A stretch of 16,674 nt of DNA from a virus (IMGVR_UViG_2778261169_000001:1-16674), one strand, 5' to 3'; shown: positions 4,877 through 8,325, numbered from the stretch's first letter. Notes: generated by a model not told the origin, from the letters alone. Made by a program: numbers and translations.

Positions 4877-5227
4877 TTAACTCAGTGGAAGGGTGATAGA
4901 AAAAGGCTGGCCTGATGCCGAACGCGTGCCGGTCATATCGACGTACATCGCGCCGTCATCCTCTCCGCGTTCAACGGTGATGGTCGACAAACTGACGCGC
5001 GGTTCCCACCTCTGGATCGCGGAGTAGCACGCGGCCATAATCTGCAGACGCAGCGCCGGGGTCTGCGGCTGGTCAATCAGTGCAGACAACAGCGAGCCAT
5101 ATTCGCGGCGCATGACGCGCGAGCCCACTGGCGTGACCAGAATGTCGCGCACGCTTTGCCTGATGTGCTCAACTTCAGAAATACTGAGGCCGGTCTGGCT
5201 GTTCATTCCCAGATAACGCACCGTCAT
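4877..5227 (-). CDS. W: Baseplate protein W (P2 gpW-like, GPW/gp25 family)
   Basis: Start trimmed from the 171-aa track ORF to the internal ATG at 5227-5225 (MTVRYLGMNSQTGLSISEVEHIRQSVRDIL...), giving ~116 aa as for P2 W. This ATG overlaps the V stop codon (ATGA). Confidence 0.8.
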   Translation of the reverse strand: MTVRYLGMNSQTGLSISEVEHIRQSVRDILVTPVGSRVMRREYGSLLSALIDQPQTPALRLQIMAACYSAIQRWEPRVSLSTITVERGEDDGAMYVDMTGTRSASGQPFSITLPLS

Positions 5228-5865
5228 TTGACCCCCTTCGTCCAGTTTCCGCCCGGCTCCACGCCACCATGATCGTGGGCATCGACCTGCACGCCGTTTG
5301 AGGTAAATTTCCCTTCGGTGTGCTCGATGTTCCCCGACATCGTCCCGCCTTTTTTCACCTCGAGCGTGCCGGTGATGAGCTTGTTGGTACACACCACCTC
5401 GGGAGTATCGAGGGTAATGCGGGTTTCGGCTTTCACTAGCACCACCGGCACGATGGCGGTAATGGACTCCGACGCGGTAACGTCGGCGGTTTTAATACCG
5501 GATACGGTGAGCGCCCCGTTTTCGGGTTCGTACTCGATAACCGCCCCGTCAGGAAAAGTGACGTGAAACGCATCGGACGAGGCCGACGGCGCAGGATGGT
5601 CATCAGAGAAAATGCCGGGCAGCACAAAGGCTGTGTCCAGCTCGCCACCAATGGCAAGAATGAGCACCTGCTCGCCAACAGAAGGAGCCCACCACACCCG
5701 CGAGCGGCCGGCGCGGCAGGTCAGCCAGTTAAGCCAGGTGGTTTGCATCCCGCCGGTCTGTACACGACAAAGCCCCTCGACGGGGTCGACGTCGGTCACA
5801 ATGCCGGTGCGGATAAGGTTGCGGATCGCCCGAGCGATTTCCTGTAAAGAATTTAAATTATTCAT
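5224..5865 (-). CDS. V: Baseplate spike/assembly protein V (P2 gpV-like)
   Basis: Start set at ATG 5865-5863 (MNNLNSLQEIARAIRNLIRTGIVTDVD...), which aligns with the P2 V N-terminus and gives ~213 aa (P2 V is 211). The longer track ORF from 5964 would add 33 residues drawn from the AT-rich island. Confidence 0.85.
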   Translation of the reverse strand: MNNLNSLQEIARAIRNLIRTGIVTDVDPVEGLCRVQTGGMQTTWLNWLTCRAGRSRVWWAPSVGEQVLILAIGGELDTAFVLPGIFSDDHPAPSASSDAFHVTFPDGAVIEYEPENGALTVSGIKTADVTASESITAIVPVVLVKAETRITLDTPEVVCTNKLITGTLEVKKGGTMSGNIEHTEGKFTSNGVQVDAHDHGGVEPGGNWTKGVK

Positions 5866-6128
5866 GTGGAAAGGATGCCGACTGGAAAGGCTAGTGGCAA
5901 TCAAGTGGAGTTTTATGGGAGATGAAACAACAATTATCAGCTTTAAAATATCAGTATAATTCATCCCATTAGATTAATGAGAGCCACATAAAGGATTTAT
6001 CAAATAGCAAAACTTAGAAATGAAATAAATCTCATAGACATTTCATCATGATATAAAATTATTTTCCGAACCCTTACCAAAGCAGATATGGGGCTAAATT
6101 ATCAAACAGCCCCACGAATATTAAAACA

Positions 6129-6707
6129 TTATTTTCCACAAACCATATTATCTATCGCAGCCATATAGGATACAAACAGATCTACATAACCACTTACGTC
6201 AGTGAGACTAATATCATTTGCATTGTCGTTATGATGAATAATGTTATTTCTCTTTACAACCACTGCATTCACAACATCCTTATTCGCATTAAATTCCGCC
6301 GAATTCAAAAGATTAACACCCAAATAAGAAAATGCCTTAATCGTCTTGTAAGGATTACCAGACAGGCTATCCGACACCTCACTTTTCTCAACCTTTAAAT
6401 CAGCATCTATATATTTCAACTCCTTATCTTTAACATCTTTTTTGACTCGCCAAAGCAAAAAATTGTGTGGCAAGCAGGCTGCTTTGAGCCTGCGATTGAT
6501 GGTATCGCAGTGCCATGTTGCAACCTCAGTCAAATACGACTCTAAATAAGTGCAGAGTGTAATAAGATACGATTTAACAAAAAAATTAATGTTCTTATTG
6601 AAGAATTCATTTTCCTCAAGGATAGCCTGTTGCTCCGTCTCCTTAATAATTTCTTTTAAGGATAAAAATAATGAACGATATCCATCATAGTATTCAGTAT
6701 TTTCCAT
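6129..6707 (-). CDS. Hypothetical protein with C-terminal R-x4-H motif (possible HEPN-type RNase), second gene of the island pair
   Basis: 192 aa from ATG 6707-6705 (the track starts 3 nt upstream at a TTG). AAGGAAG lies 6 nt upstream; the start overlaps the upstream gene's 3' end by 14 nt. Motif VVKRNNIIHHND at residues 151-162 is encoded at ~6231-6251. AT-rich codon usage. Confidence 0.6.
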   Translation of the reverse strand: MENTEYYDGYRSLFLSLKEIIKETEQQAILEENEFFNKNINFFVKSYLITLCTYLESYLTEVATWHCDTINRRLKAACLPHNFLLWRVKKDVKDKELKYIDADLKVEKSEVSDSLSGNPYKTIKAFSYLGVNLLNSAEFNANKDVVNAVVVKRNNIIHHNDNANDISLTDVSGYVDLFVSYMAAIDNMVCGK

Positions 6708-7743
6708 CAATAACTTCCTTAAGAAGTGCCACCCAACTAGCCCTACGCTTCATCACCGAACTCTTATTCTGTAGCCCACCTGATAAAGTTTTTTTGAACT
6801 CAGCACTTGAACAAAGAGTAAACCAAGCATTCCGTATTTGTTCGGACTTTTCATTTACAATATCATCATTTAACTTGCCAATTGTAGGCATTAAAATGTC
6901 ATAATGAACTAACCCTTTACGTTTTCTCCTAACTGTAGGGTTTGTAAATACATCTTCACCAAATATTTTTTCACACTTAGATAATGATGTTTTGAATCTC
7001 TCCCTCATAATATTCAGTTCATCATCTTTTAAGTCTGAAAATTTTTCCATATGATCATCCAAGAATTCTTTCAAGGAGCTATCAAAGTAATCAAAAAAGT
7101 TATCTTCATAAAATGCAAAAAAACGCAAAACTTGTTCGTCTGGCTCACGACTATCTCTTTTTACTGTAGTTGTTTCCGCCAAACCAAAATTTTTAATGGC
7201 ATCAATATTACCTAACTCTTCTAATAATTCATCAAACCCTCCCGGATATAACGCATGTCTTATTTCTTGATCAGAAAGTTTAACTGCCCCCTGATTGAGT
7301 CTAGAAAATATCTCTCTTATTAATTTTTTGGGATTTTCTTTTCTTAGAACAATGCATCTTATTGTTGTCGACTCTAACTCTGAACGTAGAGATCCTAATT
7401 CAGAAAACTTTTTCCCTTCAAGCTCTTTAAATGTAGTCATTCCCTCCAAAGCGAACTCGTCATCAAAAAATTTCTGTATTGTGGTTAATCGCTGAACACC
7501 ATCAATTACAATATGATTGCCGCTATCATCTTCTGCAAAGTAACAAGATGGAAGAGGAATACGCATTAAACAAGATTCAATGAATTTTGAAGATCGCAGC
7601 CATCCGTCCTGATCCCATTTGTACTTTCTTTGAAAGTCTGGATTCAGTTTTAGTTTGATGGGATTGGACTTCATCCTAGAACATAAAGTCTCAAATGGAT
7701 AATCTATGGGGAATAAATTCAATGTTTTATCATCGTTAGACAT
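6694..7743 (-). CDS. DUF262 (ParB-like/GmrSD N-terminal domain) protein, no recognisable nuclease domain
   Basis: 349 aa; ATG 7743-7741 with AAGGA 7 nt upstream. DUF262 hallmarks: NPDFQRKYKW (aa 35-44), IVIDGVQRLTT (DGQQR-type motif, aa 78-88, DNA ~7489-7503) and IFSRLNQGAVKLSDQEIRHALY (F-x-R-x-N...G...L...E, aa 145-166). The C-terminal ~170 aa is helical with no HNH/DUF1524-like His-Me motif that I can see. Confidence 0.75.
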   Translation of the reverse strand: MSNDDKTLNLFPIDYPFETLCSRMKSNPIKLKLNPDFQRKYKWDQDGWLRSSKFIESCLMRIPLPSCYFAEDDSGNHIVIDGVQRLTTIQKFFDDEFALEGMTTFKELEGKKFSELGSLRSELESTTIRCIVLRKENPKKLIREIFSRLNQGAVKLSDQEIRHALYPGGFDELLEELGNIDAIKNFGLAETTTVKRDSREPDEQVLRFFAFYEDNFFDYFDSSLKEFLDDHMEKFSDLKDDELNIMRERFKTSLSKCEKIFGEDVFTNPTVRRKRKGLVHYDILMPTIGKLNDDIVNEKSEQIRNAWFTLCSSAEFKKTLSGGLQNKSSVMKRRASWVALLKEVIDGKY

Positions 7744-7800
7744 GCTTCAATCCTTGTAAGTAAAAGCTTAAAAAATCAACGAGGTAGCAGACAACAACAA

Positions 7801-7829
7801 TATTTACCATTTTTTATGATTAAGGTCAA
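7801..7829 (-). promoter_or_regulatory. Candidate sigma70 promoter for the island genes
   Basis: On the minus strand: TTGACC (7829-7824), 17-nt spacer, TGgTAAATA extended -10 (7809-7801). Lies in the 135-bp S-to-island intergenic region, about 55 nt upstream of the DUF262 ATG. Confidence 0.3.
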
Positions 7830-7878
7830 AAGGTCGGTAAGCTAGGATTCGTCTTATGAGACTTGCAACCGTAAATAG

Positions 7879-8325
7879 TCAATTTAGATGTTCAATAACC
7901 AATTTTTCAATCAACAAATTGTCTCCAAAGTCAACACCAAGCAACTGCCGTTCTGGGTATTGCACGTCCTGAGCATGTGGGTTTGGCCGGTCTTTAAGTC
8001 CGAGCTGATGAATCTGAGCAATACGTTGCACCTTGCCGGTAAACTCGACCACCGCTGCATCATCGCGGCCTCTGGCTTTCATGTAGCGGTTCGTTCGCAA
8101 CTTCTGAAACATCGTCCGCTTAATACGCCCTTTCTTCGCTCTGAGCGGCTGGCGTTTTCGCGCCTGATACGGCGTGCCATCAGGCGCTTTTTGCTGTTTG
8201 ATGCGTTGCTGTTGCGATCTGCGCAGTTGCTTTGCTATTTCAGCGGCCAGCTTACGCCGACCCGCCGGTGATATTGCCGCAATCAACCCCGCAAGTTTGT
8301 CATCAAAAGGCTTAAATTCATTCAT
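7879..8325 (-). CDS. S: Tail completion protein S (P2 gpS-like)
   Basis: 148-aa ORF (P2 S is 150 aa) directly downstream of R with an 8-nt overlap; ATG at 8325-8323; basic N-terminal half typical of gpS. Confidence 0.85.
   Translation of the reverse strand: MNEFKPFDDKLAGLIAAISPAGRRKLAAEIAKQLRRSQQQRIKQQKAPDGTPYQARKRQPLRAKKGRIKRTMFQKLRTNRYMKARGRDDAAVVEFTGKVQRIAQIHQLGLKDRPNPHAQDVQYPERQLLGVDFGDNLLIEKLVIEHLN

Follow-up and report, generated by a model that had tools for sequence, protein, structure and literature searches.

What does a DUF262 protein do when it carries no nuclease domain of its own, and which gene supplies its effector? The question is raised by a stretch of viral DNA of 16,674 nucleotides (IMGVR_UViG_2778261169_000001:1-16674, hereafter the window) that corresponds to the late-gene region of a prophage resembling P2 (PSP3/Eganvirus-like). 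A preliminary description, made from the sequence alone, had placed at 6694-7743 a DUF262 protein with three N-terminal hallmark motifs, shorter than GmrSD-type enzymes and devoid of a fused nuclease, whose effector function would be provided by the downstream gene. Our analysis indicates that this gene (gene A) and its downstream neighbor (gene B), which encodes a HEPN protein, probably constitute a self-contained, PD-T4-2-type module of anti-phage defense, which the P2-like prophage carries as a moron.

Gene A (6694..7743) has exactly the coordinates given in that description. It is located on the minus strand, the plus-strand translation of the same interval being riddled with stop codons. 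The open reading frame encodes a protein of 349 amino acids (protein A) made of a ParB-like NTPase domain followed by a C-terminal helical domain. Its translation contains DFQRKYKW at residues 36-43 and IDGVQRLTT at residues 80-88, and residues 146-160 read FSRLNQGAVKLSDQE. The three DUF262 motifs, I (QRKYKW, residues 38-43), II (DGVQR, 81-85) and III (FSRLN, 146-150), are invariant in 46 homologs and are found in 79 of 80 genomic homologs. Pfam family PF03235 (GmrSD_N, formerly DUF262) matches residues 21-166 (7246..7683, minus strand) with a score of 83 bits for a cutoff of 33.2 and an E-value of 4.1e-23, which far outstrips a chance match; it is the sole Pfam family found at E<=1 in the whole protein. 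Judged from these motifs and this match, the ParB-like nucleoside triphosphate (NTP)-binding module is intact, as was first proposed.

The claim that the C-terminal half holds no nuclease is also upheld. In a separate Pfam scan of the C-terminal 179 residues, the top match is spurious (E=0.16). Residues ~200-345 (6709..7146, minus strand) form an all-helical domain without nuclease motif: in the AlphaFold2 model built with 46 homologs, residues ~200-349 fold into seven helices (predicted local distance difference test score, pLDDT, mostly 85-96) and include no beta-beta-alpha element. This domain is probably the equivalent of the ParBDB domain of NsnA, a component of the Menshen system. The N-terminal half, in contrast, is poorly modeled (pLDDT <50), which is probably explained by an alignment of low diversity. 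Foldseek, queried with this model, found no significant match in the PDB, BrxU being ranked 15th (E=3.7). Sequence-profile searches of the PDB gave nothing meaningful and NCBIfam gave no family for either protein A or the HEPN protein, and PHROGs assigned protein A to phrog_2598 (6e-66), a family of "unknown function". Protein A is indeed shorter than GmrSD-type enzymes, since the PDB entries of BrxU, SspE and DndI have 557-594 residues. However, it has 2104 homologs at E<=1e-5, and of the 120 matches listed almost every one has 349-350 amino acids; this conserved length indicates that gene A is not truncated and is not a shortened GmrSD gene.

The second gene, gene B (6129..6707, minus strand), encodes a HEPN protein of the RiboL-PSP family (192 amino acids), which is a predicted ribonuclease (RNase) effector. 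Its product is matched over its full length by the Pfam family HEPN_RiboL-PSP (PF18735; E=9.8e-18), whereas PHROGs gives no match. It carries the HEPN catalytic signature R153-N154-N-I-I-H158-H159 (Rx4H; 6231..6251, minus strand). Neither R153, N154, H158 and H159 nor the extended signature K-R153-N154-x-I-I-H158-H159-N-D varies among 45 homologs, and an R[NSDQ]x3-5H motif is found in 74 of the 76 partner genes identified next to relatives of gene A. The AlphaFold2 model of the HEPN protein is all-helical (pLDDT 91.7). The gene B product thus displays both features expected of the HEPN superfamily (RiboL-PSP family), an Rx4-6H motif and an all-alpha HEPN fold. HEPN domains are mostly RNases that serve as defense effectors (PMC3710099), and the strict conservation of the catalytic motif argues for a predicted active RNase. 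The effector is therefore likely to differ from what a GmrSD-type enzyme would use: a HEPN ribonuclease is predicted, and not a DNase of the DUF1524/HNH type. Hence, the idea of an effector encoded by the downstream gene is supported by comparative evidence, the HEPN gene adjoining the DUF262 gene in 76 of 80 loci, but the pair is not a split GmrSD: with an RNase-type HEPN protein as the partner, in place of a DUF1524 protein, we rejected that candidate.

The two genes are closely tied to each other. The stop codon of gene A and the ATG of gene B overlap by 14 nt (6694..6707, minus strand), and an AAGGA Shine-Dalgarno sequence lies within gene A, which implies that the two genes are probably translationally coupled. 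In a synteny survey in which one genome per species was scanned, we examined 80 loci with relatives of protein A at 50-69% identity, spanning Proteobacteria, Cyanobacteria, Bacteroidota, Verrucomicrobiota, Planctomycetota, Chloroflexota, Alicyclobacillus and the archaeon Methanococcoides. A HEPN homolog lies directly 3' of the DUF262 gene, on the same strand, in the 76 loci mentioned above; in three of the four others the contig ends at the DUF262 gene, and in the last one the DUF262 gene is truncated. The junction could be measured for 75 pairs: the genes overlap by 1-23 nt in 59 of them and are separated by 0-20 nt in 15. Furthermore, the divergence of A and that of B (identity to the window copies) are correlated (Spearman 0.71), the HEPN protein evolving faster (median identity 37% vs 57% for the DUF262 protein). 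No conserved third gene, whether methyltransferase, ATPase or NsnB/NsnC, was found in the 80 loci; the largest cluster of neighbors, present in eight of them at inconsistent positions, resembles generic ABC ATPases. On the basis of gene order, the pair is a self-contained and co-inherited module. From synteny, gene overlap and correlated divergence, we infer that the HEPN and DUF262 proteins depend functionally on each other.

This architecture has already been described. PD-T4-2, from E. coli ECOR65, is listed as "DUF262, HEPN"; in HHpred, its proteins A and B match best PF03235 and PF18735 (HEPN_RiboL-PSP), respectively, and its deletion in ECOR65 restores plaquing of T4 (Vassallo et al. 2022). 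The corresponding ECOR65 records are RCO39066.1 and an unannotated partner (QOYX01000002, 338334-339873). Like PD-T4-2, the window pair consists of two adjacent, co-oriented genes forming one operon, with a gene A encoding a PF03235 protein of about 350 amino acids without DUF1524 and a gene B whose product, a small HEPN protein, has PF18735 as its best profile. The total sizes are also similar (1540 bp for PD-T4-2 vs 1615 bp for the window pair), and both are found in E. coli. In addition, protein A matches positions 45-354 of the 363 positions of the PADLOC model PD-T4-2_A (9.5e-43). The window pair therefore shares the architecture of PD-T4-2 and belongs to a type of system that is not new. 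The same gene association was also recorded by Anantharaman et al. 2013 (PMC3710099), who tabulated "Ribo L-PSP-HEPN ... operon with ParB" with a conserved Rx4-6H motif. This entry is a comparative-genomics note that treats ParB as a nuclease and includes neither mechanism nor phenotype.

The location of the pair is that of cargo genes. The window ceases to be homologous to PSP3 and two further E. coli prophages at 5932/5933 and 7936/7937. The 2.0 kb delimited by these breaks (5933..7936) have a GC content of 34%, the remainder of the window having 56%, and the GC content at third codon positions is 0.28 and 0.36 in the two cassette genes vs 0.70 in gpV. This variable low-GC cassette lies at the junction of genes S and V, which are only 68 nt apart in PSP3. 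By homology and composition, it is of foreign origin in the P2-like prophage. The S-V site (orf30) is a classical moron region, one of three in P2-like phages (PMC6823313). Elsewhere, close relatives are located at a prophage edge, and distant DUF262 and HEPN pairs occupy cargo sites of three other temperate phages, namely Peduovirus P24B2, a Klebsiella Peduoviridae phage and a Vibrio phage.

Several lines of evidence argue for a role in defense: the strict linkage of A and B (overlap, synteny, correlated divergence, no third conserved gene), the identical domain architecture of a known defense system, PD-T4-2, and the genomic settings, i.e. a low-GC cassette at a P2 moron site, an island of Pantoea described below and the cargo sites of three temperate phages. 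Moreover, a functional coupling between ParB-like and HEPN domains is suggested by PD-lambda-5, in which they are fused in one protein that is accompanied by a methyltransferase. PD-lambda-5 and the P24B2 pair resemble the window pair in that they couple a ParB-like domain to HEPN and occupy a cargo site of a P2-like prophage. However, they differ from it by their HEPN subfamilies, by a fused or longer protein A and by a DNA methyltransferase that is absent from the window pair.

How such a module might work can be proposed from better-known DUF262 proteins. In SspE and GmrSD, DUF262 senses a DNA feature and its NTPase activates the attached nuclease, and the ParBDB domain, the helical domain that follows DUF262, has been implicated in DNA binding (PMC12065111, PMC10952713). 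By analogy, the product of gene A would join a DUF262 NTPase of the ParB-like type to a helical domain that probably binds DNA, and that of gene B would be the HEPN ribonuclease; the two proteins would be synthesized together and probably assemble into a complex. Within the lysogen, protein A would serve both as a sensor and as an NTP-driven switch. Contact with superinfecting phage DNA, which may be modified or in replication, would change its state and unleash the HEPN RNase, which would cut cellular and/or phage RNA. Translation would stop and the incoming phage would fail to propagate, by abortive infection or growth arrest. For this pair, we infer that the two proteins associate, what triggers them, which RNA is cut and that they act against phages.

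Several points weigh against assigning the pair to the PD-T4-2 type and against this scheme. The likeness to PD-T4-2 comes from domain architecture, HHpred tables and a PADLOC model and not from a direct alignment. The match of protein A to PD-T4-2_A reaches just 145 bits and is outscored by that to the Menshen NsnA model (267 bits, 6.6e-80), which implies that protein A and PD-T4-2_A are only distantly related. The HEPN partner is matched at E<=1 by no model of the PADLOC library, which may or may not include one for PD-T4-2_B, and is therefore not recognizable as PD-T4-2_B. No mechanistic study of PD-T4-2 was found in the searchable literature, so that the order sensor, switch and RNase is carried over by analogy from SspE, GmrSD and further HEPN systems. 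Finally, a scan for promoter and terminator consensus sequences returned nothing above shuffled expectation.

These features could also be viewed, tentatively, as those of a distinct and unusually conserved DUF262-HEPN defense family, in which the NTPase would read a DNA cue and directly gate a separate HEPN RNase. The PADLOC models that we used would probably miss a DUF262-HEPN pair as a system, A being best recognized as "NsnA" and B having no model. The three phage-borne pairs are no closer than protein A of the window to PADLOC PD-T4-2_A, and PADLOC gives no match for their HEPN partners. Concerning conservation, protein A is at least 50% identical among E. coli, Cyanobacteria, Bacteroidota, the Firmicute Alicyclobacillus and the methanogenic archaeon Methanococcoides (locus L079), which is unusually high for a mobile defense-type gene and implies wide horizontal transfer under strong constraint.

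The pair might instead be a toxin-antitoxin (TA) or addiction module, in which a HEPN toxin would be neutralized by the DUF262 protein and which would stabilize the prophage or island, the anti-phage effect being secondary. The overlapping two-gene layout with the putative neutralizer upstream is that expected of such a module, the best structural matches of the HEPN model are HEPN toxins from HEPN-MNT TA systems, and the module spreads on mobile elements. However, the upstream protein, with its 349 amino acids and invariant NTP-binding motifs, looks like an enzyme and not like a small labile antitoxin or an MNT, and PD-T4-2, a tested system of identical architecture, was isolated and validated as a phage defense. 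In comparison with type II/VII HEPN-MNT systems, there is no adjacent minimal nucleotidyltransferase (MNT) antitoxin, the DUF262 protein being the only partner. An RNA antitoxin in the style of AbiF was also sought in the island, which contains no tandem repeat array and has no Rfam match. An addiction module thus appears unlikely, although TA and defense roles of the pair are not mutually exclusive.

We consider it quite improbable that the DUF262/ParB-like protein is itself a DNase that attacks invading DNA in a restriction-like manner, with the HEPN protein as a back-up suicide RNase or a regulator. Anantharaman et al. 2013 do speak of a "ParB nuclease" and place ParB-like folds among the endoDNase domains of restriction-modification systems (PMC3710099), and a PADLOC type II restriction endonuclease model weakly matches protein A (E=7e-4). 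Nevertheless, in GmrSD, BrxU and SspE, DUF262 is the NTPase and sensor while DUF1524 cleaves DNA (PMC12065111, PMC10952713); protein A has no detectable nuclease domain or motif, and the strictly conserved HEPN motif favors an active RNase.

Protein A also resembles Menshen NsnA (Millman 2022; Li et al. 2025), its residues 15-345 aligning with positions 51-383 of the 385-position model and its layout being the same, ParB-DUF262 followed by a helical ParBDB domain (PMC12065111). By contrast, the ABC-type ATPase NsnB (AAA_15 and DUF3696) and NsnC (inactive PIN and nuclease effector) are both absent from the window and from the 80 homologous loci, which led us to reject membership in Menshen; the effector in the window is a HEPN protein, a domain that the Menshen paper does not mention. 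GmrSD, BrxU and SspE share with protein A an N-terminal DUF262 with the three motifs. However, these enzymes (557-594 residues in their PDB entries) are single polypeptides with a C-terminal DUF1524 His-Me DNase, whereas protein A lacks DUF1524 and has a separate RNase-type partner. DARNA (preprint) was rejected as a counterpart since it is a different, single-protein HEPN system, and no Dazbog model appears among the PADLOC matches of either protein at E<=1. That gene A is a mere remnant, either an orphan Menshen NsnA deprived of both NsnB and NsnC or a GmrSD-type enzyme that has been cut short, is hardly credible: NsnA is its best PADLOC match and it is far shorter than BrxU, SspE and DndI, but this explanation is refuted by the length kept among the matches listed and by the HEPN partner present wherever the locus could be assessed and the DUF262 gene is intact (76 of 76), with no ABC ATPase or third gene conserved, and the neighbors in the window are all phage structural genes.

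The genes that flank the pair are gpS and gpV. On the upstream side, gpS (7879..8325, minus strand; Pfam Phage_tail_S, 6.8e-36, and annotation) encodes a tail completion and virion morphogenesis protein and is the last gene of the upstream late operon. Related prophages are homologous to it only up to ~58 nt from its 3' end (7879-7936), so that its final ~19 codons are part of the swapped, AT-rich cassette and not of the conserved backbone. Between gpS and gene A, the AT-rich intergenic region (135 nt; 7744..7878, minus strand) contains a presumed cassette promoter, picked by eye (TTGACC-17 nt-TAAATA preceded by TG). Downstream of gene B, another AT-rich intergenic region (263 nt; 5866..6128, minus strand) includes a 9-bp stem-loop at 6088-6115, whose fold (-17.3 kcal/mol, z=-1.2) is not significant. 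Its gpV-proximal 67 nt are conserved phage sequence, homology to related prophages resuming at ~5932, and presumably hold the late promoter of the V operon. It is followed by gpV (5224..5865, minus strand; Pfam Phage_base_V and Phage_spike, and annotation), the baseplate spike gene, which is the first gene of the next late operon.

An identical cassette is found in 30 of 5426 complete E. coli genomes, whose names include NDM3-6, several "strain 167", WCHEC005784 and AR_0137. Judging from strain names only, the cassette is probably carried by one or a few carbapenemase-associated clinical lineages and its spread would be clonal rather than wide. In three of these 30 genomes, an IS5-family insertion sequence (IS903B or ISKpn26) lies between the HEPN gene and gpV (locus L086, 784-1752, equivalent to about 5870-6128 of the window); both cassette genes are intact in the one locus inspected. 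This insertion probably separates gpV from its late promoter.

In two other E. coli P2-like prophages, the S-V site harbors unrelated single genes on the opposite strand, encoding proteins of 237 amino acids (locus L084, 1274-1987) and 398 amino acids (locus L085, 1158-2354). Neither has a significant match in Pfam, and both are candidate cargo or defense genes of the orf30 moron site. Recent work on P2 hotspots had drawn attention to two different loci, Z/fun (Vassallo 2022) and old/tin, the latter adjacent to the portal gene (Rousset 2022, Vassallo 2022). In the window prophage, the Z/fun hotspot is empty, with a gap of ~135 nt (~1030-1164) between the tail sheath and tail-fiber assembly genes. 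The window stops short of the portal-adjacent hotspot, where RefSeq annotates a hypothetical protein of ~370 amino acids (locus L001, 19650 onward).

Relatives of the pair are found in other settings. In Pantoea (locus L092, 4267-5246 and 8311-13050), it is flanked by an RNase A-like toxin gene with a CdiI_2 immunity gene and by a large AAA_5 and PDDEXK_7 pair. The former are CdiA-type toxin and immunity genes, the latter is McrBC-like, and an integrase fragment adjoins them. This locus looks like a small defense or conflict island. In Peduovirus P24B2 (locus L082, 140-3041), next to the replication gene, a gene encoding a DUF262 protein of 381 amino acids (30% identical) is followed by a HEPN_MAE_28990 gene, with a DNA methyltransferase gene nearby. 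This arrangement fits the entry "MAE_28990: operon with ParB nuclease and DNA methylase" of the 2013 survey (Anantharaman et al. 2013, PMC3710099). hhalign detected no relationship between the profile of the window HEPN protein and the P24B2 HEPN protein.

The window pair reveals no new kind of system. Its interest lies in the fact that, among DUF262 proteins, only those joined to a DUF1524 DNase, as in GmrSD, BrxU and SspE, are well understood, so that the DUF262-HEPN family offers a route to how an NTPase sensor controls a separate RNase. Because it is small (349 and 192 amino acids), self-contained, strongly conserved and present in sequenced clinical E. coli lineages, the pair is a convenient model for such work. 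Furthermore, these data indicate that a defense-type cassette can reside at S-V (orf30), a classical moron site in P2-like phages. If the DUF262-HEPN pairs do form a distinct family, they would represent a minimal immune switch that senses DNA and cleaves RNA, and their study would reveal the workings of PD-T4-2-like systems.
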